DNA from: Alphaproteobacteria bacterium
GTDB lineage: Bacteria > Pseudomonadota > Alphaproteobacteria > JALCBB01
Direction of reading: 5' to 3'
Assembly: GCA_028066985.1 (NCBI GenBank)
Contig: JALCBB010000003.1
Location: 1-39,759 of the forward strand
DNA: 39,759 bases
Part shown: piece by piece, positions 1-39,759 of the stretch
How the letters are laid out: every line of letters starts with the position of its first letter
Position numbering within the stretch: position 1 is the first letter of the stretch
The notes under the pieces: generated by a model
What the model was told of the DNA's origin: nothing
The model's database searches: none
Seen by the model: only the letters and a program-made list of their open reading frames with translations
Made by a program: the position numbers and the translations under genes

Positions 1-157
1 TGCGGGCTAGCCCGCACCCATTAGTTGGCATCGCTCGCTTGAGCCAACATCGTGACTGTCTTAGTCAAACGCCCACTAATGCCAGGTGCTGACCTTCGTT
101 GTCTCTTAATTAAAAACTCCCACTAATGCCAGGGGCGGTTCGTCGTTGTCTCTTTAA
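1..157. repeat. Composite palindromic intergenic element, copy E1 (right arm only; the rest lies outside the window)
   Basis: GC hairpin GCGGGCTAGCCCGC at 2-15, then an arm ending CCCACTAATGCCAG, then outer motif CCTTCGTTGTCTCTTAATTAA at 93-113. A second partial module (CCCACTAATGCCAG + TTCGTCGTTGTCTCTTTAATTA) runs into the stop codon of the 158-721 gene. The same modules recur at 7 other sites. Confidence 0.85.
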
Positions 158-721
158 TTAGAGGTTCTGACGCTCGCGATCAGCAATGTCGCGCAGCACC
201 ACCTCCCGCGCCTCCAAAACCTTCAGCAAAACAAGGTTTTTCGCATTGTCATCACCGTGCCGCCACTCCCTCCGCTCCGGATGCGCCGACGCCCGCAACA
301 ACTCCTCCGCACGCGAACGAACCTCATCCGCCGTCGCCGTCGCACCCAGTCCTAAAACTCGGCGCGCCTCCCGCAACGACATCACCGTCGCATCCGCCCG
401 TCGCGCCGCGCTCCGCGCCCGCCCCCCAGGACTCAAACGATAACGCAACAAATGAAAAATCTGGTACGCCACCACCCAAAACAAATTCCGCGGCGACAAC
501 CGAACCACTAAATGAAATAAACGCGCCAAAAACGGCAGCGAAAGCAAACTCCACAACTTCTGCCCCGCCAGCAACAACACCAAACCCGCCACCACACCCA
601 AAACAGGCACCACCCACGGCGACATCCGCACTCCCGCCGCGTGTCGTCGAGCAATCCCGCGCGACAACAACGCAAGTCCGATAATTAAGACCACCGCCGA
701 AAACGCGATCACAAAAGCCAT
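158..721 (-). CDS. Membrane protein with a C-terminal J-domain-like segment (HPE instead of HPD)
   Basis: The N-terminal half is hydrophobic with several predicted TM helices. The C-terminus reads SLREARRVLGLGATATADEVRSRAEELLRASAHPER, which fits the J-domain helix I-II pattern but has HPE at the HPD position. Confidence 0.5.
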   Translation of the reverse strand: MAFVIAFSAVVLIIGLALLSRGIARRHAAGVRMSPWVVPVLGVVAGLVLLLAGQKLWSLLSLPFLARLFHLVVRLSPRNLFWVVAYQIFHLLRYRLSPGGRARSAARRADATVMSLREARRVLGLGATATADEVRSRAEELLRASAHPERREWRHGDDNAKNLVLLKVLEAREVVLRDIADRERQNL

Positions 722-734
722 GCCTCAGTCCCCC

Positions 735-2786
735 CTAATCCCTCAATGAATCATGAATCTGTCGCGCCAGACCCGCGCTGATCCCGCCAACCCGCGTCAA
801 GTCCTTCACCGACGCCCGCGAAATCGCCCGCACATCCCCGAAATGATGCAGCAAAGCATGACGCCGCTTCACACCAACACCAGGAATGTCGTCAAGACGC
901 GAACGCAACTGCGCCTTCGCGCGTCCGCGGCGATGCGAACTCACCGCGAAACGATGCGCCTCGTCACGCAAACGCTGAATGTAATGCAGCACCGGCACAT
1001 TCTCAGACAAGTCCAGAGGCGCGTCGCGTCCGACAACAAAAACACGGTCAAACTTCGGATCGCGGCCAGGTCCCTTCGCAATCGCCAGCAACGCGGGACC
1101 TTCAATGTCGCCGCCGCCGTCACCGTCGCTGTCGCCGTCACCGCCGCCGAGAACCTCGCGCGCAACCGCAAGTTGATTCCTGCCGCCGTCAATCACCCAG
1201 AGATCGGGACGGTCACTGTCTCCGTCGCGAATGTGCGCCAGCCGCCGCGTCAAAACCTCGCGCATCATCGCAAGATCATCCTCCGAACTCGCCGCCGACT
1301 GAATGCGAAACTTGCGATAGTCGCGGCGCCGAAAGCCGTCGGCGGTCGCCACCACCATCGCGCCATACGGAAAACTGCCGCGCAGATGACTGTTGTCAAA
1401 CACCTCAACACGCTCAATCGCGCCGTCAAGCCCGAGAATGTCGGCGAGCGCGCGCAGAAACTCCTCGCTGTTCTCGCCCGCAAGACGCCGCGTCAGCGCC
1501 GCCGCAGCGTTGTGAACCGCATGCTCCATCGCGCGCCGCTTCGCCCCGCGCTCGGGAACACGCACGCGCACCGCATGTCCCGCGCGTTGCGACAGCGCCT
1601 CGGCAAGCAGCGCGGCATCGTCAGGCTCGGCGTTCGTCAGAACCAAAGGCGGAGGCGGCGCCTTCGCGTAAAATAACGCGACAAAATCAGCGAGAATGCG
1701 TCCCTCGGACAACTCGTCGCAGCCGCTCGGAAAAAACGCGCGGTTGCCGTAGTTACGTCCGCCGCGAAAGAAAAAAACCTGAATGCAGGTGCGCGTCCCG
1801 TTCTGCGCGCACGCGAACAAGTCAGCGTCATCGCCCTGACTCAAATTCACCGCCTGATCCGCCGTGATCGCCGCAAGCGCGCGCAATCTGTCGCGCAGAC
1901 GCGCCGCCGTCTCAAAATCCTGCGCGTCGCTCGCGCGTCGCATGTCGCGCGTCAACCGCTCGCGGATAAGCGCGTCGCTGCCGGCAAGCGTCTGACGAGT
2001 CTGGCGCACAAGTCCGTCGTAATCTTCGCGCGTAATCTTGCCGACGCACGGCGCCGAACAACGCTTGAGGTCATACAAAAGACACGGACGCGAGCGCGCG
2101 CTGAAAACACTGTCCGAGCAACTGCGAAGCAAAAACGCGCGCTCAAGCGCCGCGAGCGAATTGCGCACCGCGCCGACTCCCGCGAACGGGCCGAAGTAAT
2201 GGCCGGGCGCCGTATGCGCTCCGCGGTGCCGCATCAGGCGCGGAAAGTCATGCCCCGTCGCTATCAAAATGTACGGATACGACTTGTCATCGCGCAGCAG
2301 AACATTGAACTTCGGCTCAAGACGCTTGATGAGATTCGTCTCAAGAAGCAGCGCGTGGATCTCGGTCTCGGTCTCAATGATCTCAACATAGCGCACGAGC
2401 GAAATCATCCGCGCGATGCGGTTGGTCTGCTTGTCAGGACGCGCATACGCCGCCACACGCTTGCGTAAATTCTTCGCCATGCCGATGTAAATGGCGTTTT
2501 CGCCGGCGTCAAGCATACGATAGCAGCCGGGGGCGTCGGGCAGATTTTTCAGCGTCTGCAAAATCACATTGACGCCGTTCTTGAGAGAGGGCGCGGCGGA
2601 GTCGCGGGGCGTCCCGGCGGCGAGCGCGTTGGCGCGCGCCTCTCTGAGTTCGCCGCCGTCGCCGGGCAGGCGGATGTCAAGCGCCGCGCCGTACGAGGCG
2701 AGTTCGCTCTTCGGGCGGGGCGCGCGCTTTCCGCCGAGACTGGGTTCGGTTTTGCGACTGGTCATGGTGTGGTAGGATGCCTCCAT
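735..2786 (-). CDS. uvrC: Excinuclease ABC subunit C (UvrC)
   Basis: GIY-YIG motif (GCYRMLD..IYIGMAKNLRKRVAAY), UVR domain (DFETAARLRDRLRAL), IDGGRNQL endonuclease region and C-terminal (HhH)2 (IPGVGVKRRHALL...GGISAGLARQI). An alternative ATG at 2765 is possible. Confidence 0.95.
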   Translation of the reverse strand: MEASYHTMTSRKTEPSLGGKRAPRPKSELASYGAALDIRLPGDGGELREARANALAAGTPRDSAAPSLKNGVNVILQTLKNLPDAPGCYRMLDAGENAIYIGMAKNLRKRVAAYARPDKQTNRIARMISLVRYVEIIETETEIHALLLETNLIKRLEPKFNVLLRDDKSYPYILIATGHDFPRLMRHRGAHTAPGHYFGPFAGVGAVRNSLAALERAFLLRSCSDSVFSARSRPCLLYDLKRCSAPCVGKITREDYDGLVRQTRQTLAGSDALIRERLTRDMRRASDAQDFETAARLRDRLRALAAITADQAVNLSQGDDADLFACAQNGTRTCIQVFFFRGGRNYGNRAFFPSGCDELSEGRILADFVALFYAKAPPPPLVLTNAEPDDAALLAEALSQRAGHAVRVRVPERGAKRRAMEHAVHNAAAALTRRLAGENSEEFLRALADILGLDGAIERVEVFDNSHLRGSFPYGAMVVATADGFRRRDYRKFRIQSAASSEDDLAMMREVLTRRLAHIRDGDSDRPDLWVIDGGRNQLAVAREVLGGGDGDSDGDGGGDIEGPALLAIAKGPGRDPKFDRVFVVGRDAPLDLSENVPVLHYIQRLRDEAHRFAVSSHRRGRAKAQLRSRLDDIPGVGVKRRHALLHHFGDVRAISRASVKDLTRVGGISAGLARQIHDSLRD

Positions 2787-2820
2787 TGTAGCACGACAGG
2801 AGCCGACACAGGAGCCGACA

Positions 2821-3192
2821 ATGGCGAAGCAAAAACGCGTGACGCAGTGTCCGGAGTGTCATGCGCCGGTGGCGCATCGGCGCGCGCTGACCTGCGGCAA
2901 GTGCGCGGCGCAGTTGTATTATCCGAAGCGCAGTTTGGTGGGCTGGGTGTTCGTGTGGCTGTTCTTCGCGTTCAACGGCTACATGCTGGTGCGGCTCTAC
3001 TTCACGGGACTGGGTTTGTTTCGGACATACTCGACGGTGGCGTCTCCGACGGGCGCGGCGGGGACGGCGGGCGCGGGCTTCACGGTTTCAACGACGGCGG
3101 CGACGGTGGTGAGTCTGTTTTTTGAGTGGTTCATCGGATTTTTCTTCATCGGAATCCTGGTATTGATGACGAAGCCGCGTGTGCGGCTGTGA
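2821..3192 (+). CDS. Small zinc-ribbon membrane protein (hypothetical)
   Basis: CPECHAPV...CGKC zinc-ribbon followed by two hydrophobic segments. AGGAG lies 7 nt upstream of the ATG. Divergent from uvrC. Confidence 0.45.
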   Translation: MAKQKRVTQCPECHAPVAHRRALTCGKCAAQLYYPKRSLVGWVFVWLFFAFNGYMLVRLYFTGLGLFRTYSTVASPTGAAGTAGAGFTVSTTAATVVSLFFEWFIGFFFIGILVLMTKPRVRL

Positions 3193-3204
3193 TTATGTTT
3201 CGCG

Positions 3205-3960
3205 TTGCGGCTGACGGCGATGCCTGACCTGTTGCTGCTGCTGCTTTGCGTTCCGATTTTTTTGTTGAGCGGACTCGTCAAAGGCACGGTCGGCATGGGA
3301 CAGCCCGCGACGGCGATCGGTCTGCTGACATTTTTTGTTCCGCTGGACGAGGCGGTGGTGATTGTGCTGGTTCCCGGACTGATTACGAACGCGATTCAGA
3401 CCTTTAAAGGTCCGCCTGTGTGGGGGATGCTGCGACGGCTGCGGATTTTTTTCGTGATGAATGTTGTGTTCGCGTGGATTGGCGTGAAGATTCTGGCGAC
3501 GGGGGAGATCATGGCGTTGACGGCGGTGCTGGGGGTGCTGTTGATATTGCATGCGGGCGGGATGTGGGTGACGAACTGGCGGGTGATATCGCGGCGAGCG
3601 GAGCGGATTTTGCAGGTTCCGGTCGGATCGTTGAACGGACTTTTTGTGGGGATGACGGGCGCGACGCCGTTTCCGGGGGTTCCGTATTTGCAGTCGCTGG
3701 GGATGGAGCGCGAGGAGTTGATTCAGGCGATGGGGGCGATGTTTTTGATTGCGGCGATCACGCTTGCGTTTGGTTATGTGAGCGAGGGTTTGCTGACGCG
3801 GGAGGGGGTGACGGCGTCTGTGTTTGCGGTGGTTCCTTCTACGATTGGTTTGTACCTGGGGCAGCGGATACGGCATCGGCTGTCGCAGGAGGCGTTTCGG
3901 AAGACCTTTCTGGTGGTGTTGTTTGCGCTGGGTGTGTATATCACCGCGACAAACATTTAA
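3205..3960 (+). CDS. TauE/SafE-family (sulfite exporter-like) integral membrane protein
   Basis: About 250 aa and multi-TM, with a glycine-rich first helix (GLVKGTVGMGQP) typical of the family. The ORF opens with TTG at 3205; ATG at 3220 is a likelier start. Confidence 0.55.
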   Translation: MRLTAMPDLLLLLLCVPIFLLSGLVKGTVGMGQPATAIGLLTFFVPLDEAVVIVLVPGLITNAIQTFKGPPVWGMLRRLRIFFVMNVVFAWIGVKILATGEIMALTAVLGVLLILHAGGMWVTNWRVISRRAERILQVPVGSLNGLFVGMTGATPFPGVPYLQSLGMEREELIQAMGAMFLIAAITLAFGYVSEGLLTREGVTASVFAVVPSTIGLYLGQRIRHRLSQEAFRKTFLVVLFALGVYITATNI

Positions 3961-4230
3961 GAGACAAGCGAAGCGCGATAAATTAAAATTAAAAAGAAAA
4001 CAATTTATTTAATTGACACCATTAATTGTCTACTATTAAATTAAGAAAACAATTTATTTAATTTGACCTCTTAAATAGTCCAATTGCTTTTTAATTTTTT
4101 TTGCGGGCTAGCCCGCACCCATTAGTTGGCGTTGTTCGCTTGAGCGGCTATTGTGAATGTCTTAGTCAAACGCCCACTAATGCCAAGGGCTGTTCTTCGT
4201 CTATCTCTATTAATGTGCTACAATAATTAA
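3961..4230. repeat. Composite palindromic intergenic element, copy E2 (left arm reduced to the outer motif, full AT-rich core, full right arm)
   Basis: The TauE stop TAA is embedded in TTAAGAGACAAGCGAAG (outer motif, reverse orientation). Next comes the AT-rich core with two GAAAACAATTTATTTAATTGAC boxes, a T-run and hairpin GCGGGCTAGCCCGC (4103-4116). The arm ends CCCACTAATGCCAAG, followed by CTTCGTCTATCTCTATTAAT. Confidence 0.85.
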
Positions 4231-4830
4231 ATGAAAAGATTGACCCTCGCCATCACTATCGCCTTCGTCGTCACCATCACCGACGCCGGCGCCCAGGACA
4301 ACGAACTCCAGGAAGCCCTCAATCACATCAAAAACCAAAACTTCCACACCGCCCTCCAGCAACTCACACCACTCGCGCAAAACGGAAACCCCGCAGCACA
4401 ATACCACCTCGGCCGCATCCACCAACTCGGCTGGTCCGTCACCCCAAACATCACCACCGCCAAAATGTGGTTCCAACTCGCCGCCGAACAAAATCACCCC
4501 CTCGCCCAAATCGCCCTCGGCACCCTCCACGAAGGACTCTTCAATCACCCCCGGAACTACAGCGCCGCCGCCAACTGGTACCGCAAAGCCGCCGAACAGG
4601 GAAACCCCGAAGCACAAGCCAACCTCGCCGCGCTCTATAACCTCGGACGCGGCGTCCCCAAAAATAAAACCTACGCCTTCATGTGGTTCCACCTCGCCGC
4701 CCAGAAAAACAACGACCCGTTCTTCCGCGCCGAAAGAGATTCCGTCGCCAGAAGAATGTCGGTCGCCGCGATCTTCAGGGCGCGCAGACTCGCCGTCCGC
4801 TGCCGCGAACAAAACTACAAACAATGCTAA
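4231..4830 (+). CDS. Secreted Sel1-repeat (TPR-like) protein
   Basis: Signal peptide MKRLTLAITIAFVVTITDAGAQ. Repeated A-x-x-LG-x-x-Y/H-x-G-x-G-V-x-x-N/D-x-x-x-A-x-x-W-F/Y-x-x-AA-x-QG units. Confidence 0.8.
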   Translation: MKRLTLAITIAFVVTITDAGAQDNELQEALNHIKNQNFHTALQQLTPLAQNGNPAAQYHLGRIHQLGWSVTPNITTAKMWFQLAAEQNHPLAQIALGTLHEGLFNHPRNYSAAANWYRKAAEQGNPEAQANLAALYNLGRGVPKNKTYAFMWFHLAAQKNNDPFFRAERDSVARRMSVAAIFRARRLAVRCREQNYKQC

Positions 4831-4895
4831 AATAACAGGCGCAAACTCGGCGCCGTCAATGAAGCCCCCTGAACAAGCCTAGCCCCGACAAAACC

Positions 4896-6734
4896 ATGTG
4901 CGGAATCATCGCAATCTCGTCCGACAAACAGGTCGCCGCCGCGCTCCTCGCCGCGCTCAAGCAACTTGAATACCGCGGCTACGACTCCGCCGGACTCGCC
5001 ACCCTGGAAAAAAATAAAATCCACACCGCGCGCGCACAGGGCAAACTCGCCGCGCTCGAACAAAAACTCAAAACCCGCGCGCCGCCCGGCAGCACCGGCA
5101 TCGGACACACCCGATGGGCGACGCACGGACGGCCCTCCGAACAGAACGCGCACCCCGTCATCGCCGAGGTCGGCGGCAAAAGCGAAAACGCCGTCGCCGT
5201 CGTCCACAACGGCATCATTGAAAATCACGCGAAACTCAAACAGGAACTCGCGCGACAGAACCTCGCCTTTCACACCGACACCGACACCGAAGTCATCGCG
5301 CAACTCACGAGCCTCAACCTCGCCGCCGGACTGCCTCCGCTTGAAGCCGTCACCGAGACGCTCAAACGCCTTGAGGGCGCCTTCGCGCTCGCCTTTCTGT
5401 TTTCGCGCGACGACACTGTTATCGGCGCGCGGCGCGGCAGTCCGCTCGCCGTCGGACAGTCCGACAACACCCTCGCCCTCGGCTCCGATGTGCTTGCGCT
5501 CGCTCCGATAGCGCGGCAGATCGCGTATCTCGAGGAGGGCGATATCGTCGTTCTCTCCGGCGACACTCCGCGACTTTTCAACGCCGCCGGCGAGAACATT
5601 CAGCCGCAGTGGAAGGCGATTTCGCCGTCCAGTCTGCAGATCGGCAAGGGGCAGTATCAGCATTTTATGCAGAAGGAAATCTACGAGCAGCCCGCCGTCG
5701 TCGGCGAGACGCTTGACAGTTTTCTGGATCCGGCGCGATTGCGGGCTTCGTTTCCGGAGTTTCCGTTTGACACGGGTTCGCTGCGGAAGGTTCTTTTGTC
5801 CGCCTGCGGCACTGCTTACTATGCGACGGTCGCGGCGCAGTACTGGATAGAGGGTGTCGCCGGTCTTCCGTGTTCTGCGGAGATTGCGAGCGAGTTGCGT
5901 TATCGTGATCCGGCGCTTGGCGGCACTGACCTTGCGGTTTTCGTTTCGCAGTCCGGCGAGACGATGGACACTCTTGAGGCGGCGCGAATGGTCGCGCGCG
6001 CGGGCGTGTCGCGTCTTGCGGTGGTGAATCAGGGTGAAAGCACGCTGGCGCGGGAGTGCGAGATGTCGCTGCTGACGCGGGCGGGCGCCGAGATCGGCGT
6101 CGCATCTACGAAGGCGTTTACGACGCAACTTGCGCTGCTTGGCTGTTTCGCGCTGGAACTTGCGCGGGCGGGCGGCGTGTCGGACGAGCGGTTGCGCGCG
6201 TATGGTTCGGCGCTGATGGAGTTGCCGTCGCGTTTATACGAGGCGTTGACGCTTGACGAGCGTGTGTCGGCGATCGCGGCGGACATTTCGCGCGCGCGTC
6301 ATGCGTTGTATCTCGGACGCGGTGCGATGTATCCGCTTGCTTTGGAGGGCGCGTTGAAGTTGAAGGAGATCAGTTACATTCATGCCGAGGGGTATCCTGG
6401 CGGCGAGATGAAGCATGGTCCGCTTGCGCTTGTGGATGACGAGATGCCTGTGATTGTGCTGGCGCCGTCTGGCCCGTTGTTCGGGAAGATTGCTTCTAAC
6501 GCGGAGGAGGTGATGGCGCGCGGCGGGCGCGTGCTGTTAATTTCGGACGCGGAGGGACTGGCGAGTTTCGGCGGCGAGCCGGAGTGGGTTTTGGAGATGC
6601 CGTCTTGTGATGTATTTGTGCAGCCGATTTTGTATGCGTTGCCGGTGCAGTTGCTGGCGTACTACGCGGCGTGCCATCGCGGGACGGATGTGGATCAGCC
6701 TCGCAATCTGGCGAAATCCGTGACTGTAGAGTAG
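4896..6734 (+). CDS. glmS: Glutamine--fructose-6-phosphate aminotransferase (isomerizing)
   Basis: N-terminal MCGI nucleophile, two SIS domains (SQSGETMDT), canonical C-terminus ...NLAKSVTVE, 612 aa. Confidence 0.97.
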   Translation: MCGIIAISSDKQVAAALLAALKQLEYRGYDSAGLATLEKNKIHTARAQGKLAALEQKLKTRAPPGSTGIGHTRWATHGRPSEQNAHPVIAEVGGKSENAVAVVHNGIIENHAKLKQELARQNLAFHTDTDTEVIAQLTSLNLAAGLPPLEAVTETLKRLEGAFALAFLFSRDDTVIGARRGSPLAVGQSDNTLALGSDVLALAPIARQIAYLEEGDIVVLSGDTPRLFNAAGENIQPQWKAISPSSLQIGKGQYQHFMQKEIYEQPAVVGETLDSFLDPARLRASFPEFPFDTGSLRKVLLSACGTAYYATVAAQYWIEGVAGLPCSAEIASELRYRDPALGGTDLAVFVSQSGETMDTLEAARMVARAGVSRLAVVNQGESTLARECEMSLLTRAGAEIGVASTKAFTTQLALLGCFALELARAGGVSDERLRAYGSALMELPSRLYEALTLDERVSAIAADISRARHALYLGRGAMYPLALEGALKLKEISYIHAEGYPGGEMKHGPLALVDDEMPVIVLAPSGPLFGKIASNAEEVMARGGRVLLISDAEGLASFGGEPEWVLEMPSCDVFVQPILYALPVQLLAYYAACHRGTDVDQPRNLAKSVTVE

Positions 6735-7096
6735 CGAAGCACCACCCTTGGCATTAGTGAGAGTTAAATTTAGACATTAACAATAGCCGCTCAAGCGAAA
6801 CACACCCACTGATGCCCGCAGGCGCTGCCTGCAAAAAATTAAATTAAAAAGAAAATAATTTATTTAATTGACACCATTAATTGTCTATTAATGAAAAGGC
6901 AATTGATTTAATTGACCCCTTAAATGGTCAAATTAATTTTTTAATTTTTTTTGCGGGCTAGCCCGCACCCATTAGTTGGTGCTGTTCGCTTGAGCCAACA
7001 TTGTTAATGTCTAAATTTAACTCCCACTAATGCCAAATACCGCACTTCGTTTGTCTCTTAATTAAAGTGTCTACTAATGCTAGGGGCGGTTCGTCG
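6735..7096. repeat. Composite palindromic intergenic element, copy E3 (complete; between convergent glmS and glmU)
   Basis: Left arm: CTTGGCATTAGTGAGAGTTAAATTTAGACATTAACAAT..., hairpin GCAGGCGCTGCCTGC (6818-6832) and an A-run. AT-rich core at ~6839-6944. Right arm: T-run, hairpin GCGGGCTAGCCCGC (6953-6966), ...ATTGTTAATGTCTAAATTTAACTCCCACTAATGCCAA and outer motif CTTCGTTTGTCTCTTAATTAA (7045-7065). The outer 37 nt of the two arms are near-perfect reverse complements. Confidence 0.9.
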
Positions 7097-8479: not shown

Positions 8480-8550
8480 GGCGACTCGCAAAATGGCTAC
8501 ACACACAGAGTAGACCGAGCCGTCCGCGGGCGCAAGTGAGAAGCGCGGCG

Positions 8551-12799: not shown

Positions 12800-12847
12800 T
12801 CTCCCCGCCGCTTGCGTCCGGCAACGGCGCGTAGTATTCTCAATGCC

Positions 12848-12952
12848 AGCATCTACTCAGTTTATTTGTGGGAAAGGTCCGTCGGGCCTTCCACCAAATA
12901 AAACACCCTAACGGGGAATAAGTGGAATCTTTCCCACTTCTGGGTAGATGCT
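12848..12952 (+). other. Candidate structured RNA or 5' leader (three-way junction) upstream of the Sel1 lipoprotein gene
   Basis: A 13-bp closing helix AGCATCTACTCAG (12848-12860) / CTGGGTAGATGCT (12940-12952, one G-U). It encloses a ~20-bp imperfect hairpin (12861-12902, GTCG loop) and a 6-bp hairpin AAGTGG..CCACTT (12920-12939). No known RNA family recognised. Confidence 0.3.
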
Positions 12953-13013
12953 AAAGACCCGGCATCTCATATGTCGGCGTCTCCATCAGACCGGAAGTGG
13001 AGGAGGTTCCGCC

Positions 13014-25238: not shown

Positions 25239-25255
25239 GTGGCTGCTCTGGAGGG

Positions 25256-30719: not shown

Positions 30720-30842
30720 TCGGGCAATACAACCTAAAGTTGTATTTCCGCGACCGCCCGCCCGTCAAAAAACGCGGCGCCGTCAATGCGTCCCGCGGAA
30801 CAAAAGCAGGGGCAGGGAACTAAATACGCTCGCCACCCTCGC
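30720..30842. repeat. Outer inverted repeat, right copy (IR-oR); overlaps the genuine 3' end of the ABC ATPase gene
   Basis: Mirror image of 19191-19313. Contains the hairpin AATACAAC..GTTGTATT and the CATTGACGGCGCCGCG box (reverse complement, 30773-30788). Confidence 0.9.
30726..30746 (+). terminator. Candidate terminator hairpin for the Type ISP gene
   Basis: AATACAAC-CTAAA-GTTGTATT followed by TCC, starting 20 nt after the stop codon. Confidence 0.3.
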
Positions 30843-32837: not shown

Positions 32838-33676
32838 TTGACCGCTCCCATCGTGATGCCGCGGATCAGTTGCCGCGAGAAGATCACATAGAGCGCGAGC
32901 ACCGGCAGTATCGCCATGCTGAGCGCGGCGAGGACGGCGTTCCAGTCGGTGACGAATTGTCCGATGAAGACCTGGCTGCCGAGGGTGAGGGTTTTGGTTT
33001 CGTCGGAGGGCGCGAGGATGAGCGGAAACCAGAGGTCGTTCCAGATCGGAATCATATTGAAAACCGCGACCGTCGCCAGCGCCGGACGCACGAGCGGCAG
33101 CACGAGGCGGAAGAAGATCGTGTATTCGCTGAGTCCGTCTATTCTGCCGGCGTTTTTGAGGTCGTTTGAGACCTGGCGCATGAATTCGCTGAGAATGAAG
33201 ACGGCGAGCGGCAGTCCCTGGGCGGTGTAGACGAGGATGAGCGCCCAGAGGGTGTTGACGAGTCCGGTCGCGACCATCATTTCAAGGATGGCGACGGTGC
33301 CGATGCGTATCGGAATCATGATGCCGAGGGCGAGGTAGAGTCCCATGAGCGTGTTGCCGCGGAAGCGGTATTCGCTGAGCGCGAACGCCGCCATTGCTCC
33401 GAAGAGCAGAATGAAAAACAGCGAGGCGACGGTGACGATCATGCTGTTCTGAAAGTAGAGGAAGAAGTCGCCCTGTTTGAAGACGGTGTTGTATCCGACG
33501 AGCGAGAAGGTGTCGGCGTTCGGGAGATCCAGGGGGTCGCGGAAAATCGCTTTGCGCGACTTGAAACTGTTGATGACGATGACGAAGACGGGAAAGAGCG
33601 CGATGAGGGTGTAGATCACGAGCGCGCCGTGGACGAGCGCGGCGTTGAGCGGGTTGGCGCGGACTTTCTTCTGCAT
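32834..33676 (-). CDS. Carbohydrate ABC transporter permease (MalG/UgpE-like)
   Basis: Six TM segments and an EAA-type loop (GRIDGLSEYTIFFRLVLPLVRPAL). Confidence 0.85.
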   Translation of the reverse strand: MQKKVRANPLNAALVHGALVIYTLIALFPVFVIVINSFKSRKAIFRDPLDLPNADTFSLVGYNTVFKQGDFFLYFQNSMIVTVASLFFILLFGAMAAFALSEYRFRGNTLMGLYLALGIMIPIRIGTVAILEMMVATGLVNTLWALILVYTAQGLPLAVFILSEFMRQVSNDLKNAGRIDGLSEYTIFFRLVLPLVRPALATVAVFNMIPIWNDLWFPLILAPSDETKTLTLGSQVFIGQFVTDWNAVLAALSMAILPVLALYVIFSRQLIRGITMGAVK

Positions 33677-33781
33677 TTTTCGTCTGTTTTTGTCTTTGCG
33701 TTCGCGTTTGTTGTCCGGAGAGGCGGGGGAGGCGATTTGTTCAGAGGGCTGGAGCGACGGTGACGGCGACGGTGTCGGGTT

Positions 33782-34699
33782 TCACATCTGGTAGCGGCGG
33801 AGGCGGGTCTGGATTCCGAAGAGGTAGATGCAGACGCCGACGAGGATGATGGCGAACATCGCGCTTGCGACGGCGGAGCCCATATGCGGGTCGCCGAGTT
33901 GCAGTTGGAAGCCGAAGAAGGTGCGATACATGAAGGTGCCGAGGAGGTCGGTGGAGAAGTTTGGTCCGGCGAGGGCGCCCTGGGCGGCGTAGACGAGGTC
34001 AAAGGCGTTGAAGTTGCCGACGAAGGTGAGGATTGAGATGATGCCGATGGACGGCAGGATGAGCGGCAGTTTGATTTTCCAGAAGGCGGAGGCGCCGGTG
34101 ATGCCGTCTATTTCGCCGGACTGCAGGATTTCTTCGGGGATGGAGAGCAGCGCGGCGTAGATCAGCATCATCGGAATGCCGACGAACTGCCAGACCGAGA
34201 TCAGGGCGAGGGTGGTGAGGGCGTATTCTTCTTTGCCGAGCCAGGGCGCGAAGAGGAACTTGAGGCCGACGGCGTCAAGGAGCGAGGGGGTGACTCCCCA
34301 GATGGGGGAGAGGATGAGTTTCCAGGCGAAGCCGACGATGACGAAACTCAGAATCGCGGGGATGAAGATCGCCGAGCGGTAGAGGGCGGCGAAGCGCAGG
34401 CGCGGGTGGCTGAGGATGGCGGCGAGGGCGATGCCGATCGGGTTCTGGACGAGCATGTGGATGACGAAGAACCAGAAGTTGTTGGCGAGGGCGTTCCAGA
34501 ACTGGTCTGCCCAGACGGGTTCGGTGAAGAGGCGGCGGTAGTTGTCTATGCCGATGAAGACGCGTTCCTGGTCAATGCGGGTGTAGAGTGCGAGGACGAG
34601 GGTGTTGAAGAGGGGGAAGATCATGACGGTTGAGTAGACGAGGACGGCGGGCGCGAGGAAGACGACGGCGTGCCATCGGATGCGCGGGGGTTTTTTCAT
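33782..34699 (-). CDS. Carbohydrate ABC transporter permease (MalF/UgpA-like)
   Basis: Multi-TM with an EAA loop (GEIDGITGASAFWKIKLPLILPSI). Confidence 0.85.
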   Translation of the reverse strand: MKKPPRIRWHAVVFLAPAVLVYSTVMIFPLFNTLVLALYTRIDQERVFIGIDNYRRLFTEPVWADQFWNALANNFWFFVIHMLVQNPIGIALAAILSHPRLRFAALYRSAIFIPAILSFVIVGFAWKLILSPIWGVTPSLLDAVGLKFLFAPWLGKEEYALTTLALISVWQFVGIPMMLIYAALLSIPEEILQSGEIDGITGASAFWKIKLPLILPSIGIISILTFVGNFNAFDLVYAAQGALAGPNFSTDLLGTFMYRTFFGFQLQLGDPHMGSAVASAMFAIILVGVCIYLFGIQTRLRRYQM

Positions 34700-34744
34700 C
34701 GGACTTGGGCGGTCTGAATTGTCATACGGACGACGGGAAGGCGC

Positions 34745-35090
34745 CGGCGAAGCGGGCGCTTGACCCGTCCATTGTCATTTATTAACGACAAGAGACGGCG
34801 ACAAAGCACATTGCGTGATTGTCCATTGTCATCCATTAATAATGACGACAGGCGACGGCGAAGCGGGCGCTTGACCCGTCCATTGTCATCTTTAACGGCG
34901 ACGGTGACGGCGACAGGGCAGGGCGCGTAATTGTCAATCGCCGTCTTAAGTCCGGCGCCGTTACCGGGGACAATGAAAGGGCGATGACGAAGCGCGGCGC
35001 GCAGTCGTCCATTGCCGGTCTTTGTTAAAAGAGTTCGCATGACAATTCAGGGAAGCACGGCGCGTAATTGTCCGTTGTTCTCTTTAATAA
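34745..35090. repeat. Cluster of (C)CATTGTCAT / GTAATTGTC motifs and degenerate outer-motif copies between the permease gene and murQ
   Basis: The 34-mer CGGCGAAGCGGGCGCTTGACCCGTCCATTGTCAT occurs twice (34745-34778, 34856-34889). CCATTGTCAT also occurs at 34823-34832. GGCGCGTAATTGTC occurs twice (34922-34935, 35059-35072). Each is followed by TTTAA/TTAATAA-type motifs. The last copy forms the murQ C-terminal codons. Confidence 0.8.
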
Positions 35091-35925
35091 GAGCGTCCGC
35101 CGCCTCAACACTCAGACCGCGCGACACCATCACCGCCGCGACCTTTATATCATCCGCCGCGTCCTCTAACGCCGCCGCCGCGACAGACTCGGATACATTC
35201 CCGATCTCGCCGACAATCCGCGTCGCCCGATGTTTCAGTTTGTCATTGCCAGGACGCATGTTCACCATCATTCCGTCATATATATGACCCAGACGCAAAC
35301 CCATCAAAGTAGACAGCATGTTCAGCGCGATCTTCTGCGCCGTGCCCGCGCCCATCCGCGTAGAACCGCTCACCAGTTCCGGCGGCGTCTCCAGAAGCAC
35401 GGCGTGATCGCTCGCCAACAGAAGCGGCGACCCCGCATTGTTCGCAACGCCAATCACCGCCGCGCCCCGCGACCGCGACACCTCCGCCGCCGTCACCGTG
35501 AACGGAGTGCCGCCGCTCGCCGCGACCGCAATCACCGTGTCGCCCGAAGACACCCGCGAAAGTTTCGCCTCCGCCTCGTCCGTGTCGTCGTCAGACGCCG
35601 CCGAAGTCACCGGCGAAGTCGGCACGCCGCCCGCCATCACAATGCGGATGCGCTCGCTCGCGACGCCGAAAGTGCTGCCGAGTTCCATCGCGTCCATCGC
35701 CGCCAGCATTCCGGACGCGCCCGAACCGACATACCACAACACGCCGCCCGCCCGCAAAGTCGCCGCCATCGCCTCCGAGCCCGCGCAGATCGCGCGCAAA
35801 GTCTCCTCGTTGAGAAGAGACTTCGCCGCCTCTATCTGCGCGTCTCTCAGAAGCGCCGCGACCTCGGCGACCGGCAAGGCGTCAAGCCCCGCCGCCGCGT
35901 CATGCAGCCGCTCCGTGTTGCCCAT
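35047..35925 (-). CDS. murQ: N-acetylmuramic acid 6-phosphate etherase-like SIS protein
   Basis: Single SIS domain (YVGSGASGMLA...), ~292 aa, in a GlcNAc/MurNAc gene context. Start moved to ATG 35925 (MGNTERL...), 30 nt after the upstream stop. Confidence 0.65.
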   Translation of the reverse strand: MGNTERLHDAAAGLDALPVAEVAALLRDAQIEAAKSLLNEETLRAICAGSEAMAATLRAGGVLWYVGSGASGMLAAMDAMELGSTFGVASERIRIVMAGGVPTSPVTSAASDDDTDEAEAKLSRVSSGDTVIAVAASGGTPFTVTAAEVSRSRGAAVIGVANNAGSPLLLASDHAVLLETPPELVSGSTRMGAGTAQKIALNMLSTLMGLRLGHIYDGMMVNMRPGNDKLKHRATRIVGEIGNVSESVAAAALEDAADDIKVAAVMVSRGLSVEAADALIKENNGQLRAVLP

Positions 35926-35954
35926 AGCGGACGACAGCCCGCGCCGCCAGCGCG

Positions 35955-37223
35955 CTACTGCTGCGGGCCGTACCAGGACGCGAGGCCTTCCTGCAACTTC
36001 TGTCCGAGTTCCTGCGGGGACGATGTTCCCTTGATCGCCGCAACCGACGCGCCCCATGTCTCGTTCTCAAGATTAGGCGTGCCGCGCGACAGAATCTGAT
36101 AGGTAGAACGAATCGTCGACTCGCACTGACCGCGCCAGCCGATAAACTCGCGCGCAAGCGGATCCTCAAGCGTGACCGGAGTCTTTGACAACGGAAAGAA
36201 ACCGGGCAAAGCATTGCCGAAAATGCTCGCGAACTCCGGCGACGCCACCCACGCGAGGAATGTGCGCGCCGCGTCCGCGTTCGGAGTCGCCACATTCATT
36301 CCGATGCCGATGTCCGTGTGATCGGAAATGTAACAGGTGTCGCCCGCGTTACGCACGGGAGGCCGGAACGCTCCCATCTCAAACTCGGCCTGCGCGTTGA
36401 AACCGGAAATCTCCCAGCTGCCGGCGGGATAAATCGCCGCGCGTCCGAGCGTGAAAAGATTCTTACTGTCGGGATAGGTCTGCGCCTCGTAACCGTCGCC
36501 GAGATATTCGCCCCAGCGCGCGAGCGTCGCGTAAGGCTCCACCCACTGCGAGTCGGTCAACTTCTGCGAGCCGTCAATCAGACCAAGACGACCCTCCTCG
36601 CCGCGCCAGTAGTTGGGGCCGATGTTGTTGTAGCCCATCGTCGCGGCTTCCCACTGATCGTTGGTGCCCATCGCCATCGGAATGTACGAACCGTCAGCCT
36701 TGATCGCGTCAAGCGCGGCGAAAAACTCGGCCTCGGTCTGCGGCACCGAAATACCGAGTTCGTCAAAGGCGTCCCTGTTGTAGATGAAGCCGTGAATCAC
36801 CGACGCCATCGGAACACAGAAAGTCGCGGAACCATCGTCAGTCTGCCACGCCGACTTCGCAACATCGGAGAAATTAGACATCGCCGACATGTCGTCAAGG
36901 TCGGCCAGATGTCCAGCCTCATAAAGAGCCAGAGAAACGTCAAACGGACGACAGGTTATCAGGTCGCCCGCGGCGCCCGCCTCCAGTTTCGCGTTGAGCG
37001 CGGCGTTGTACTCGGTCGGCGCGGTCGGCGAGAAGGTCACGCTGATGCCGGGATTTTCCGCCTCAAACGCCGGAATGATCTCGTTCTGCCAGAGCGCGAG
37101 GTCGTCGTTGCGCCACGACTCGATGATCAACTCCTGCGCGGACGCCGGCGCCGGCGCCGTCAGGGTCAAGGTGAAGGCGAGAGCGATCGCGCCCGCCGAA
37201 AAAATGAAGAAACTGCTCCGCAT
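35955..37223 (-). CDS. ABC transporter extracellular solute-binding protein (family 1, sugar-type)
   Basis: Signal peptide MRSSFFIFSAGAIALAFTLTLTAPAPASAQE, 422 aa, first gene of the transporter operon. Confidence 0.8.
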   Translation of the reverse strand: MRSSFFIFSAGAIALAFTLTLTAPAPASAQELIIESWRNDDLALWQNEIIPAFEAENPGISVTFSPTAPTEYNAALNAKLEAGAAGDLITCRPFDVSLALYEAGHLADLDDMSAMSNFSDVAKSAWQTDDGSATFCVPMASVIHGFIYNRDAFDELGISVPQTEAEFFAALDAIKADGSYIPMAMGTNDQWEAATMGYNNIGPNYWRGEEGRLGLIDGSQKLTDSQWVEPYATLARWGEYLGDGYEAQTYPDSKNLFTLGRAAIYPAGSWEISGFNAQAEFEMGAFRPPVRNAGDTCYISDHTDIGIGMNVATPNADAARTFLAWVASPEFASIFGNALPGFFPLSKTPVTLEDPLAREFIGWRGQCESTIRSTYQILSRGTPNLENETWGASVAAIKGTSSPQELGQKLQEGLASWYGPQQ

Positions 37224-37371
37224 CGGAAATCCTCCCTTGCTGCGTTTGTCGCCGGACGCCCGCGCGTCCGCGATGCTTTAATATAGCGCGTCAGACACAT
37301 TAACACAGCACCCTTTTTCTGTTAACCTGTCAGATAAGCGAATATCCCCTGAATTCAAGCGCTTCCGCCCG

Positions 37372-38403
37372 ATGCCCGACACGCCGACACAGATGAAACG
37401 CGAAATTGACGAGATTCCGCGCGCGCTCCAGAACCTGCTCGCGCACGGCAGGGACGACATCACCAGCGCCGCCGCCGCCGCGAAAAATGCGCGCGGATTC
37501 GCGTCCGCGGCGCGGGGGTCGTCGGATCACGCATGCGCCGCGCTCAAATACACCGCCGAAATCCTCTCAGGACAAACAATGACATCGCTCGCGCCGTCGG
37601 TCGTCTCGCTCTACGGCAAAGAACTCAAACTCAACGGCGCGCTCTGCCTCGCCGTCTCGCAGTCAGGACAAAGCCCCGACATCGTGCAGACCGCGCAAGC
37701 CGCAGTCGCCGGCGGCGCCTTCACCGTCGCGCTCACCAATAACACGGAGTCGCCGCTCGCGGGGGCGGCGTCCGCCGTTGTCGGGATACGGGCGGGCGAG
37801 GAACACGGCGTCGCCGCGACAAAAACTTTCGTCAACTCGCTCGTCGCCGGACTCTGGCTGCTCGCCGAAATGCACGGCGACAAAAAACTGCTCGCCGCGA
37901 TCCAGAACCTGCCCGACTTCCTGCACGAGGCGACACTCTGCGACTGGACAGACGCCGCCTCCTTCATCGCCGACACTGACGCGCCCTCGCTCTTCACACT
38001 CGGACGCGGCGCCTCGTACGGCATCGCTCTGGAAGCCGCGCTCAAATTCAAAGAAGTTTGCCGACTTCACGCGGAAGGATACTCGTCGGCGGAAGTGCTG
38101 CACGGCCCCGTGTCGCTCGTGGGCGACGGCTTTCCCGTGGTCGCCTTCGCGGCGGCGGACGCGGCGGAGACAGCGCTCGCGCAGGTCGCCGACAAACTCG
38201 CCGAGCGCGGCGCGCGCGTCTTCGCGACAACTTCACGGGCGCGGCGGGCGTCGGCGCTGCCGCATGTGCGGACGGCGCATCCGATGACAGATCCGGTGGC
38301 GGCGGTCGTGTCGTTCTACGGAATGGCGGAGCGCGTCGCCGTCCTGCGCGGCGTTGATCCGGACGCGCCGCGGCACCTGCAAAAGGTGACGGAAACACTG
38401 TGA
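37372..38403 (+). CDS. SIS-domain sugar-phosphate isomerase/deaminase (GlmS C-terminal-like; NagB-II/AgaS type)
   Basis: Two SIS modules (GSSDHAC..., AVSQSGQSPDIV). No glutaminase domain. Its stop overlaps the nagA start (GTGA). Confidence 0.75.
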   Translation: MPDTPTQMKREIDEIPRALQNLLAHGRDDITSAAAAAKNARGFASAARGSSDHACAALKYTAEILSGQTMTSLAPSVVSLYGKELKLNGALCLAVSQSGQSPDIVQTAQAAVAGGAFTVALTNNTESPLAGAASAVVGIRAGEEHGVAATKTFVNSLVAGLWLLAEMHGDKKLLAAIQNLPDFLHEATLCDWTDAASFIADTDAPSLFTLGRGASYGIALEAALKFKEVCRLHAEGYSSAEVLHGPVSLVGDGFPVVAFAAADAAETALAQVADKLAERGARVFATTSRARRASALPHVRTAHPMTDPVAAVVSFYGMAERVAVLRGVDPDAPRHLQKVTETL

Positions 38404-39518
38404 GCGCGCGCACGGTCATCTACGGCGGCGGACGCATCTTTGACGGCGAGACGCTGCACGAGCAGAGCGCGGCGCGTTTTGAAAACGGAATGTTGTCGGC
38501 GATTTTGCCTGAGGGCGCGGCGGGTGTCGGTGTCGGCGACGGCGACTATGTGAATCTGCGCGGCGACATTCTGAGCGCGGGCTTTGTTGACCTTCAGGTC
38601 AACGGCGGCGGCGGAGTGATGTTCGGCGATGCTCCGAGCGTTGAGACGCTGGAGCGTGTCGCGGCGGCGCATCGCGGTCTCGGCGTGGCGAAGTTTCTGC
38701 CGACGCTGACGAGCGACATTCCCGAGAAGACGCGGCTGGCGGTGTCGGCGGTGCGCGAGGCGGTCGCGGCGGGAGTCACGGGCGTCGGCGGGCTGCATCT
38801 TGAGGGACCGCATTTGTCGGTTGAGAAGCGCGGGGCGCACGGCGCGGAGTTTATTCGTCCGATGACGGACGCGGATCTGGCGCTGCTGTTGTCGGCGGCG
38901 GCGGAGTTGCCGATGTTGATGGTGACGGTCGCGCCGGAGGGTGTTTCGCGCGAGCAGGTGGGGGCGTTGTCGGCGGCGGGGGCGGTGGTTTCGCTGGGGC
39001 ATACGGCGGCGGACTTTGCGACTTGCATGTCGTATGTGGAGGCGGGCGCGCGGTGTGTGACGCATTTATTTAACGCGATGAGTTTGCTGGGGTCGCGCGA
39101 GCCTGGTTTGGTCGGGGCGGCGTTGTGTTCGGGGCGTTTGTCGGCGGGTTTGATAGGGGATGGTGTGCATGTGCATCCGGAGGTTGTGGGGGCGGCGTGG
39201 CGTGCGAAGCGGGGTCCGGGGGGAATATTTCTGGTGAGTGATGCGATGGCGGTGGCGGGGAGTGATTTGACTGAGTTTGATTTTGGGGGGCGGACGGTCA
39301 AGCGTGGCGGGGGGCGTTTGACTTTGGCGGATGGGACGCTGGCGGGTGCGGATGTGGATTTGGGGGATTCGGTGCGGTTTTTGGCGGAGGAGGTTGGGGT
39401 GGATTTGTGCGAGGCTTTACGGGCGGTGACGGTGGTGCCGGCGGCTTTTGCGCCTGATGTTCTGGGCGGACGGCTGGCTCGTTTGGACGAAGTGGCTGTA
39501 TTAAAGGCGCCGAATTAG
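38400..39518 (+). CDS. nagA: N-acetylglucosamine-6-phosphate deacetylase
   Basis: GFVDLQVNGGGG, HLEGPHLS and THLFNAM motifs of the amidohydrolase NagA family. GTG start. Confidence 0.9.
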   Translation: MSARTVIYGGGRIFDGETLHEQSAARFENGMLSAILPEGAAGVGVGDGDYVNLRGDILSAGFVDLQVNGGGGVMFGDAPSVETLERVAAAHRGLGVAKFLPTLTSDIPEKTRLAVSAVREAVAAGVTGVGGLHLEGPHLSVEKRGAHGAEFIRPMTDADLALLLSAAAELPMLMVTVAPEGVSREQVGALSAAGAVVSLGHTAADFATCMSYVEAGARCVTHLFNAMSLLGSREPGLVGAALCSGRLSAGLIGDGVHVHPEVVGAAWRAKRGPGGIFLVSDAMAVAGSDLTEFDFGGRTVKRGGGRLTLADGTLAGADVDLGDSVRFLAEEVGVDLCEALRAVTVVPAAFAPDVLGGRLARLDEVAVLKAPN

Positions 39519-39759
39519 TCAACAGACAAAGAACCGCCCTTGGCATTAGTAAGACTTTGACCAAGACATTCACGATGTTGGCTCAAGCGAGCGATGCCAA
39601 CTGATGCCCGCAGGCGCTGCCTGCAAAAAAATTAAATTAAAAAGGAATTAATTTATTTAATTGACCCCATTAATTGTCTTATTAATAATTAACAGAATGA
39701 ATCTCTTTTTAACACATTAATTGTCTATTATTTAATTAATGAAAAACAATTTATTTAAT
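39519..39759. repeat. Composite palindromic intergenic element, copy E8 (left arm + AT-rich core; truncated by window end)
   Basis: The nagA stop TAG is followed directly by TCAACAGACAAAGAAC (outer motif, reverse orientation). Then CTTGGCATTAGTAAG..., hairpin GCAGGCGCTGCCTGC (39610-39624), an A-run, and a core with CATTAATTGTCT boxes and AACAATTTATTTAAT. Confidence 0.85.

Follow-up and report, generated by a model that had tools for sequence, protein, structure and literature searches.

What makes strand composition alternate on a scale of kilobases in a bacterium? The question is raised by a 39,759-nt stretch of contig JALCBB010000003.1 (assembly GCA_028066985.1) from an uncultured alphaproteobacterium, which is called the window below. 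A bacterial chromosome is divided into two skew domains with values typically well below those met here, and its skew is usually taken to record replication in two domains. In the window, by comparison, composition would hold a record of recurrent single-strand exposure at kilobase resolution. We found no earlier description of such a pattern in bacteria in the literature.

A kilobase-scale sawtooth

A sequence-only reading of the window had proposed, from counts of single 60-nt lines, that each native block begins C/A-rich to the right of a repeat element and ends G/T-rich at the next one. We calculated keto skew, (G+T-A-C)/length on the + strand, over 200–300 nt at a time, both for the window and for a 59-kb composite in which it is extended at either end by about 10 kb of the same 2.27-Mb contig; altogether, about 71 kb of the 2.27-Mb genome were covered. 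The sawtooth is real and stronger than hand counts could reveal, and all 16 of these counts were reproduced exactly. Skew climbs from about -0.5 to about +0.5 over each native block of 1–5 kb (Table 1). The alternation is present at synonymous sites, where the reading had proposed to look for it: the swing reaches ±0.8 at 4-fold degenerate third positions, compared with ±0.4 and ±0.3 at the first and second codon positions, a gradation that favors a mutational origin. The 4-fold sites between 4400 and 4800, for example, comprise A5 C56 G6 T0, and those between 38800 and 39200 A1 C7 G64 T13. Skew crosses zero at about 2400, 5500, 10600–11000, 16600, 32500, and 38050, matching the reversals placed by eye in uvrC, glmS, the asmA-like gene, the NifS-like gene, the oxidoreductase, and the SIS gene.

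A jump scan of the composite recovered 15 downward jumps with a size of 0.3 or more, and at least 13 sign changes with a local skew of 0.5–0.8 occur in the same 59 kb. Every one of the 15 jumps falls at one of the elements E0–E5 or E8, an ATTGTC/GGCGCC array, the 34700–35090 motif cluster, a 124-nt inverted-repeat arm at the RM island, or the end of the DarT-Macro island. The resets are abrupt and run from plus to minus. As the leading strand has G>C and T>A, this resembles a terminus, but in sign only. Their proposed coincidence with the repeats was borne out for E1–E5, E8, the arrays, and the cluster. It failed at the outer sides of E6 and E7, which adjoin RM genes with flat skew and carry no reset, and the resets near 19.3 and 30.7 kb lie at the 124-nt inverted repeat, not at E elements.

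Table 1. Features along the window (J refers to the reset, z to ssDNA folding against shuffled sequence).
Feature	Position	Strand	Remarks
E1 right arm and outer motif	1..160		full element starts about 330 nt left of window; repeat families D2, D11, D12, D14; z -19
Ramp block 1	161..3960		187-aa hypothetical (-), uvrC (-), 123-aa ORF (+), tauE (+); skew -0.5 to +0.4
E2, one-armed	3961..4215		from sequence; J = 0.59
Ramp block 2	4216..6734		Sel1 protein (+), glmS (+); sign reverses in glmS near 5500
E3, complete palindromic	6735..7105		from sequence; z -14
Ramp block 3a	7106..9140		glmU (-), 5' part of yhdP (+)
In-frame GGCGCCTTCATTGTC array in yhdP	9141..9455	+	read as ...APSLS...; moderate reset
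Ramp block 3b	9456..12439		remainder of yhdP; middle flat, +0.46 at 3' end
E4, complete palindromic	12440..12800		J = 0.46; z -13
Short ramp block	12801..13849		Sel1 repeat gene 13014-13838 (+); swing attenuated
E5, complete palindromic	13850..14235		J = 0.45; z -16.5
Ramp block	14236..17542		tyrS (-), hydrolase (-), class V aminotransferase (+)
GGCGCCTTC(A/G)(C/T)TGTC array	17543..18022	+	165-aa N-terminal extension of MnmA; reset
Ramp block	18023..19189		mnmA catalytic part; climbs to +0.38
124-nt inverted repeat, left arm	19190..19313		I2, 96% complementary; left edge of 11.4-kb island; J = 0.33
Type III RM genes res, mod	19314..24460	-	flat skew
E6, tRNA-Met, E7	24461..25690		arms 276 nt, 97% complementary; small internal ramp
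Type ISP RM gene	25808..30706	+	flat skew
124-nt inverted repeat, right arm	30720..30843		native ramp resumes
Ramp block, minus-strand genes only	30844..34699		ABC ATPase, GFO oxidoreductase, two permeases; skew -0.36 to +0.35; 4-fold -0.54 to +0.85
Intergenic GTCCATTGTCAT-type motif cluster	34700..35090		no E arms; full reset; z -7
Ramp block	35091..39512		SIS (-), SBP (-), SIS (+), 372-aa ORF (+); skew -0.26 to +0.51
E8 left arm and centre	39513..39759		extends to about 40130 outside window; J = 0.49

The chance that the sawtooth is an assembly or sequencing artefact, a concern already voiced by the reading, is negligible, since the long contig and several independent assemblies with short contigs (ENA, NCBI, Logan) agree in sequence at 99.9–100% identity, with all ORFs intact and matched by Pfam. 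The pattern continues through the 20 kb of flanks and recurs in L094, a second, independent contig from this organism (r = 0.39). In three syntenic relatives without the elements, the comparison that the reading had suggested, it is weak or absent: the relative without arrays (L089) has no sawtooth, and of the two with intergenic tandem arrays L087 displays weaker waves and L088 a faint pattern only. Skew stays flat in the RM and DarT-Macro islands, with the native ramps resuming at their borders, which speaks for time dependence. That the RM genes stand outside the pattern had been recognized before; we take them to be recently acquired DNA that lacks it. The small block between E6 and E7 does contain a ramp, as had been described, while the “cupin” label given to it has no Pfam support.

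Position between elements and gene orientation

Skew is explained far better by position between elements than by gene orientation. In logistic fits to 7262 4-fold sites, the negative log-likelihood (nll) fell from 5023.9 for the null model to 4901.6 with gene orientation, 4506.5 with phase between elements, and 4485 with exponential decay from the elements. Exponential decay was also the best of the shapes compared (linear phase 4499, step 4621), with a best-fit decay length λ of 1.3–2 kb (about 1.5 kb). The decay tracks absolute distance from an element, not block phase, and an attenuated swing is accordingly expected in the short block at 12801–13849, where two decaying effects overlap. Near-element logits of +1.66 and -1.72 indicate that both sides are equally strong. 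In a circular-shift permutation with sites defined by sequence alone, none of 1000 shifts was as high as the observed r of 0.255 (null sd 0.047); the reading had asked for such a test of sign changes against elements.

A transcription-linked origin, in which the coding strand would be keto-rich, rising toward operon ends, and the elements would be nothing but terminators, could draw on the modest signal of orientation alone and on the many elements that have convergent genes on either side and contain terminator-like hairpins. The orientation coefficient, however, is only 0.11 with position in the model, against 0.37 without it, answering the reading's question whether orientation accounts for the pattern. 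Transcription-associated skew should moreover follow the gene in sign and stay roughly constant per unit, but operons made up of minus-strand genes alone contain sign reversals, as do glmS, uvrC, and GFO themselves, the coding strand is strongly C/A-rich in Sel1a and over the 5' half of the glmS gene, and full resets interrupt ORFs and operons (near -4900, 9300, and 46700 in composite coordinates). The 4-fold keto skew to the left and right of E1 is +0.50 and -0.75. Flanks within co-oriented gene pairs behave likewise, namely around E2 between two + strand genes (+0.75/-0.83), the cluster at 34900 in a minus-strand pair (+0.65/-0.60), and the arrays at -4900 (+0.54/-0.47) and 46700 (+0.69/-0.47). 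A transcriptional cause is therefore highly improbable.

The rule that does hold, and that the reading had stated correctly, is that the keto-rich strand is the one whose 3' end points toward the element, identically whether this strand is coding or template. On it, C and A are depleted and G and T gained: 4-fold composition is A.05, C.18, G.60, T.17 within 400 nt of an element and A.11–.14, C.37, G.39, T.10 at about 2 kb. A toy equilibrium model fits best when C>T and A>G are both raised on this strand; the C-to-T changes envisaged by the reading are included in it, but on their own they under-predict G. The spectrum is read from equilibrium composition and 44 amino-acid changes, not from polarised mutations.

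Structure of the repeat elements

The E elements are AT-rich, multi-copy imperfect palindromes of 250–600 nt with an AT-rich, iteron-like centre, which lie mostly between gene ends and carry terminator-like hairpins. Ten copies are present in the 59-kb composite and five in contig L094. E3 consists of two arms of about 110 nt, each with a hairpin and a terminator-like hairpin, around an AT-rich centre of direct TTAATTGAC..TTAATTGTC repeats, and folds as ssDNA at -87.9 kcal/mol. Relative to shuffled sequence, ssDNA folding reaches z values of -5 to -19 at all reset sites and -13 to -19 in full E copies, compared with +0.5 to -3.4 in controls. Among six assemblies of the species all differences fall within the centres of E3 (6893–6937) and E4 (12531–12631). 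The arms themselves have no skew, which requires that they be homogenised or have spread recently.

Long palindromes had been suggested as substrates of hairpin nucleases. The palindromes are real in the E elements, but they are dispensable for a full reset: E2, which retains the AT-rich centre and the right arm and lacks the left arm, has the largest reset of all, and the in-frame arrays of GGCGCC-N3-ATTGTC units are not long palindromes and yet reset the skew. A simple version in which a cruciform is cut by SbcCD is therefore too narrow. Little effect is seen at E6, E7, and in part at the element at 44346–44590 of the composite.

As multi-copy, non-coding, imperfect intergenic palindromes, the E elements conform to the definition of REP/BIME or MITE-like repeats, and they share strong ssDNA folding with REP/BIME and the SbcCD-cleaved palindromes of E. 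coli. They differ from REP/BIME in their much larger size and iteron-like centre, and in that the one-armed E2 and the non-palindromic arrays act equally. We know of no flanking skew reported for REP/BIME. Rfam yielded sub-threshold hairpin matches and no family at gathering score, PLSDB plasmids contained no sequence match, and exact-pattern scans of GTDB genomes and JGI metagenomes detected no relative of the E elements. An integron-like cassette array, with promoterless accessory cassettes in one orientation and an attC site at the end of each, was rejected, the blocks being composed of housekeeping genes (uvrC, glmS, glmU, tyrS, mnmA) in both orientations and in synteny with relatives.

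Proposed breakage and resection, and competing explanations

With a probability of slightly less than one half (roughly 45%), we favor the view that the repeat features, i.e., the E elements, the arrays, and the ATTGTC cluster, are fixed sites at which the chromosome is recurrently broken or nicked and then resected. A break or nick would arise at the element, and 5'-to-3' resection outward on both sides would leave 3'-ended ssDNA, the + strand to the left and the - strand to the right. In this ssDNA, cytosine might be deaminated to uracil and read as T, and damaged adenine would probably be read as G; as the complementary strand is degraded, fill-in synthesis would fix the change. With many repetitions over evolutionary time, neutral sites lying up to about 1.5 kb from an element could come near a new equilibrium, in which the strand with its 3' end toward the element is G/T-rich. 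The break, the resection, and the chemistry are inferences. Breakage with resection would predict a change of strand of the depleted bases at the site, C and A being lost on the strand whose 3' end lies there, and a decay on both sides over about 1–4 kb; the polarity and the λ of 1.3–2 kb observed here agree with this. It would further predict a mutation spectrum dominated by ssDNA damage, C>T and also A>G or C>G. The suggestion of a recurrent break or ssDNA-exposure site, one of two offered by the reading, fits the polarity, graded decay, left/right symmetry, ssDNA folding, strain differences in element centres, and published footprints of breaks.

Two such footprints are close. Bidirectional resection of double-strand breaks (DSBs) in yeast leaves mutations of top-strand C to the left and of top-strand G to the right of the break, caused by damage to 3'-ended single strands (PMC6786661). 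The same switch of the lost top-strand base from C to G across the site, over kilobases, is found here, but the yeast clusters are single events under an added mutagen, unlike a standing evolutionary state at cis-fixed sites in a bacterium (PMC6786661). In human meiotic hot spots, C>N and A>N mutations arise on the single-stranded strand within ±2 kb, again with C and A as the depleted bases and strong strand asymmetry (PMC7615360). Those sites, however, move with PRDM9 and produce a faint excess of de novo mutations, whereas the sites described here persist without meiosis, with synonymous sites close to saturation at a skew of ±0.8.

The main rival, which we consider unlikely, holds that the elements pause or arrest replication forks as “soft termini” or leading-strand blocks. 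Either the lagging-strand template would remain single-stranded for about one Okazaki length behind a paused fork, or the leading template would be exposed beyond a blocked polymerase until re-priming. The strand that is single-stranded for longer during replication turns G- and T-rich, and along vertebrate mtDNA the skew follows a gradient of exposure time. Fork geometry predicts the observed polarity, the decay of about 1.5 kb is comparable to the size of bacterial Okazaki fragments, and the repeats at the reset sites are prone to structure or resemble iterons. A fork travelling in one direction exposes only one side, but the effect at each element is of equal strength on both. This version would therefore need forks arriving from either direction at every locus, or frequent inversion of blocks. 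The literal “miniature replication terminus” of the reading, with the square wave of fixed origins and termini that it entails, was discarded: the step fits clearly worse than the decay, and 15 downward jumps in 59 kb contrast with the single origin and single terminus at which replication skew switches in a replicon. Mammalian N-domains likewise form a sawtooth, but with abrupt upward jumps at origins and lengths of hundreds of kilobases to megabases, as opposed to downward jumps, a period of 1–5 kb, and decay with absolute distance.

Alternatively, the elements could be fixed sites of recombination initiation, with skew generated not by damage but by strand-biased mismatch correction in heteroduplexes or by integration of imported 3'-ended ssDNA delimited by the elements. 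The polarity and a kilobase-scale gradient would be expected, as in the polarity gradients known from gene conversion, and the confinement of sequence turnover to element centres agrees with it, as does the near-element 4-fold GC of 0.76–0.83, which pure C>T damage would lower. Against this, a bacterial repair bias that produces G>C together with T>A on a single defined strand is not known, and every step of the breakage model would be needed plus one more, which makes the proposal rather improbable. Selection instead of mutation, e.g., for codon usage, RNA structure, or G/T-rich 3' tails as RecA- or Chi-type substrates at breaks, is the least credible of the biological alternatives: the keto-rich strand is indeed the would-be tail strand, and RecA and known Chi sequences favor GT-rich DNA, but the effect peaks at synonymous sites, in their thousands, is graded over kilobases, and overrides amino-acid composition; selection acting on any one site would be much too weak.

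Somewhat more tentatively than for the break sites as such, we suggest that this chromosome carries cis-encoded, stable hot spots of breakage or recombination every few kilobases, comparable to permanent versions of the meiotic hot spots of eukaryotes, whose single-strand mutagenesis has brought flanking synonymous sites near saturation and reshaped essential proteins in amino-acid composition along their length. If the break reading is true, this is a natural system in which repeats set the local rate and direction of mutation, and fragile sites or recombination hot spots could be mapped computationally in uncultured organisms. Such genomes break the assumptions of skew-based origin finding, codon-usage models, and stationary phylogenetic substitution models.

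The same mutational pressure would shift codon positions 1 and 2, and hence amino-acid composition, in the same direction, and if breaks are the cause this explains the drift in composition along the essential proteins GlmS, UvrC, and YhdP. Protein divergence from relatives was not measurably higher near elements when general constraint was controlled. Of the 19 derived replacements in the C/A-rich portion of GlmS, 14 lose a G, eight of these by G>A. GlmS is only 52–65% identical to its nearest relatives.

Keto skew between repeat elements

On the + strand, keto skew, (G+T-A-C)/length, starts near -0.5 immediately right of each repeat element and climbs to ~+0.5 on reaching the next one, where it falls abruptly; GC skew and TA skew shift in parallel in the same 200–300 nt windows. 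The sequence-only reading had proposed this sawtooth from counts in single 60-nt lines, every one of which was reproduced exactly, and its by-eye zero crossings within the blocks were placed correctly. The window is 99.9–100% identical to several short contigs from other ENA, NCBI and Logan assemblies and is also matched by the 2.27-Mb contig ctg64743c of the ENA metagenome assembly ERZ21781341. Because several independent assemblies agree at this level, an assembly artefact is rejected. In a 59-kb composite of the window and ~10 kb per side from the 2.27-Mb contig, the sawtooth goes on in both flanks. A Sel1 homology search for paralogous loci in the same genome returned mostly unrelated organisms and one match leading to a separate contig from the same sample (L094, 11.8 kb), which carries the AT-rich palindromic E elements and three further sawtooth blocks, one consisting exclusively of + strand genes.

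A jump scan of the composite found 15 downward jumps (resets) of at least 0.3, every one at a repeat defined by its sequence or at the border of an island; upward changes (ramps) are gradual and motif-free. With sites picked by sequence alone, a circular-shift permutation gave r = 0.255 (z = 5.4; 0/1000 shifts as high). The skew swings by ±0.8 at 4-fold degenerate sites, ~±0.4 at codon position 1 and ~±0.3 at position 2. The alternation at synonymous sites is significant, which upholds the observation, and since the swing is largest at 4-fold sites, its agent works at the DNA level, not via protein or codon choice.

Gene orientation or transcription is rejected as the main cause. Orientations were set by gene calls and Pfam matches, and logistic fits to 7262 4-fold sites were compared by negative log-likelihood: 5023.9 for the null model, 4901.6 for orientation, 4506.5 for phase between elements, 4498.7 for both together and ~4485 for exponential decay from the elements (lambda 1.3–2 kb). 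A step function reaches 4621, and a square-wave origin/terminus model is rejected relative to exponential decay. Composition changes equally whether the strand considered is coding or template, and co-oriented gene pairs undergo a full sign flip across an element. Along an uninterrupted run of minus-strand genes the skew passes from negative to positive, resets at 34.7–35.1 kb and is negative again. Two flank resets lie inside ORFs (composite coordinates), at ~-4900 in a fused OppC/ABC gene and at ~46650 in the 5' portion of a GH36 gene that belongs to a translationally coupled operon; at each of them GGCGCC-N3-ATTGTC or its reverse complement is arrayed in frame.

Coordinates of features in the window, its flanks (composite) and related loci
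Feature	Position	Remark
In-frame repeat, OppC-ABC fusion	-4960 to -4740	composite
tauE and Sel1a-glmS interval	3220-6734	
Sel1a gene	4231-4830	
GlmS	4896-6734	
Base differences, E3	6893-6937	window vs five other assemblies
YhdP	8590-12438	
In-frame repeat, YhdP	9141-9455	
Base differences, E4	12531-12631	window vs five other assemblies
Sel1b gene	13014-13838	
In-frame repeat, MnmA	17561-18060	
124-nt inverted repeat	19190-19313 and 30720-30843	
Type III RM system	19.3-24.4 kb	
E6/E7 unit	24461-25690	
tRNA-Met gene	25164-25238	minus strand
Type ISP RM gene	25.8-30.7 kb	
Minus-strand gene run	30820-37223	
Intergenic ATTGTC cluster	34700-35090	
DarT-Macro pair	40149-41873	composite; L090 11750-13474
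GC-richer E-like element	44346-44590	composite; L090 ~15947-16191
In-frame repeat, GH36	46590-46830	composite
Arrays in relative L087	18367-18650, 12635-12819, 4085-4254	
Arrays in relative L088	18942-19145, 4074-4274	

Structure of the reset sites

When complete, an E element comprises a pair of inverted ~110-nt arms, and each arm consists of a hairpin, then a terminator-like GC hairpin and an A or T run. The AT-rich centre between the arms (23–40% GC) contains TTTATTTAATTGACNCCNTTAATTGTC once or in up to four direct repeats, and the arms are flanked outside by CCTTCGTTGTCTC motifs. The single-strand fold of E3 has an energy of -87.9 kcal/mol (z -14); z runs from -5 to -19 across reset sites, while mid-block controls give +0.5 to -3.4. 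The motif CCTTCRTTGTC (one mismatch) is present in 23 copies window-wide versus 1.4 expected. Common to the reset sites are ATTGTC-type motifs and excess single-strand folding. Of the motif copies, 21/23 lie on the + strand.

A long palindrome was considered as the essential feature. E2 possesses a single arm and yet causes the largest reset, the arrays, including those inside ORFs, and the 34.7–35.1 kb cluster are entirely armless, and the arms themselves show no skew; a simple palindrome requirement is therefore disfavoured. The E-arm pattern had no match in GTDB genomes or JGI metagenomes, E3 had none among PLSDB plasmids, and no Rfam family matched; judged by these searches, the elements appear to belong to no described family.

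The same DNA repeat is read in frame in four unrelated proteins: as ...APSLS... (forward orientation) in YhdP and in a 165-aa N-terminal extension of MnmA, and as ...DN(N/E)GA... (reverse orientation) in the OppC-ABC fusion and GH36. The GC-richer E-like element in the right flank, with both arms and a short centre, is situated inside an operon; no reset is visible there in raw skew, and 4-fold sites show a drop of ~0.57.

Base spectrum and candidate mechanisms

On the strand whose 3' end points at the nearest element, 4-fold sites shift from A.11–.14, C.37, G.39 and T.10 at ~2 kb to A.05, C.18, G.60 and T.17 within 400 nt, and their GC content remains 0.76–0.83. The C>T changes proposed earlier for such 3' tails survive in part: in a toy equilibrium model C>T alone under-predicts G, and extra C>T combined with extra A>G fits best. 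In the C/A-rich part of GlmS, 14/19 derived single-nucleotide replacements removed G, eight of them being G>A; in the G/T-rich part the trend is less clear. Protein divergence, normalised by that among relatives, shows no excess near elements. Amino-acid composition drifts with DNA skew along GlmS and YhdP, K, Q, T, A, P and H being abundant at the ends that lie in C/A-rich DNA, and G, V, L and F at those in G/T-rich DNA.

A strand exposed as single-stranded DNA is known to turn keto-rich. Our tentative explanation, with a probability of roughly 0.45 and for the ~3% of the genome covered by everything read, is that recurrent two-ended breaks with 5'-to-3' resection occur at the elements. Such a break would leave a single strand of the observed polarity, and the graded kilobase-scale decay, the symmetry on both sides and the lack of transcription dependence are consistent with resection. 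Single-strandedness accelerates cytosine deamination ~100-fold relative to double-stranded DNA, and SbcCD of E. coli can cut a long palindrome in an appreciable share of replication cycles. By a rough estimate, breaks in 0.1–1% of generations would suffice to dominate local mutation, and given these two rough figures the needed rates are plausible. Mutation clusters at yeast breaks, in which top-strand C is hit on the left and top-strand G on the right, have the same polarity as the elements (PMC6786661). Human meiotic hot spots display a break-flank footprint of the kind proposed here: within ±2 kb, the single strand on the resected side carries C>N and A>N (PMC7615360). Such footprints being already known from yeast and human, what appears to be new is the element-phased, kilobase-scale sawtooth in a bacterium: the literature searches gave no report of a bacterial chromosome with a near-saturated skew sawtooth of kilobase period that follows repeat elements, nor any publication on the window's assembly accessions.

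The main rival, in which forks pause at the elements or polymerase and helicase uncouple there, is unlikely. It yields the observed polarity, but on one side only per fork direction, and therefore requires that forks arrive from either direction or that blocks invert frequently; inversions did happen, tauE and Sel1a-glmS each being inverted versus relatives. Strand-biased heteroduplex repair is more doubtful still, and transcription, selection and artefact also rank below fork pausing. Origin-like firing, outward transcription, strand displacement from a nick and 3'-to-5' degradation predict the opposite polarity and are ruled out by strand geometry, because the wrong strand would be single-stranded.

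Islands, relatives and sequence turnover

As noted in the sequence-only reading, the RM genes are off-pattern, both type III and type ISP being flat, and the DarT-Macro genes right of the window likewise lack the pattern. Native ramps resume exactly at the RM and DarT-Macro borders (skew -0.52 at 41877). The pattern thus accumulates slowly in resident DNA. The E6-E7 block had been assigned to the sawtooth; its internal ramp is present but only small, and its supposed cupin gene is a short ORF without a Pfam match. This ORF and a tRNA-Met gene lie between E6 and E7, which are inverted copies of each other over 276 nt (97% complementary). A 124-nt inverted repeat (96% complementary) encloses 11.4 kb comprising the type III RM system, the E6-tRNA-Met-E7 unit and the type ISP RM gene, which looks like a composite island put into a former reset site. 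The DarT-Macro pair, a DarTG-type toxin-antitoxin, has E8 on one side and a native ABC ATPase gene on the other.

Among six assemblies of the species, all base differences are confined to the E3 and E4 centres, with none in ~55 kb of genes; element centres are therefore the places of sequence turnover. The top GlmS match among GTDB species representatives is 52–53% identical (Rhodospirillales/Acetobacteraceae). Three syntenic relatives (GlmS identity 62–65%; fetched loci ~51–57% GC) have zero E elements. L089, with almost no tandem repeats, has uniform, leading-strand-like skew; L087 shows weaker, longer waves resetting at unrelated intergenic tandem arrays, and L088, also with such arrays, only a weak pattern. 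One tandem unit of the relatives, GGGCTTGTAG, is repeated ~27 times. The Sel1 genes, the second as E4-Sel1b-E5, are insertions relative to these three loci, in which glmU-glmS-tauE are co-directional; here, tauE and Sel1a-glmS have each been inverted in place.
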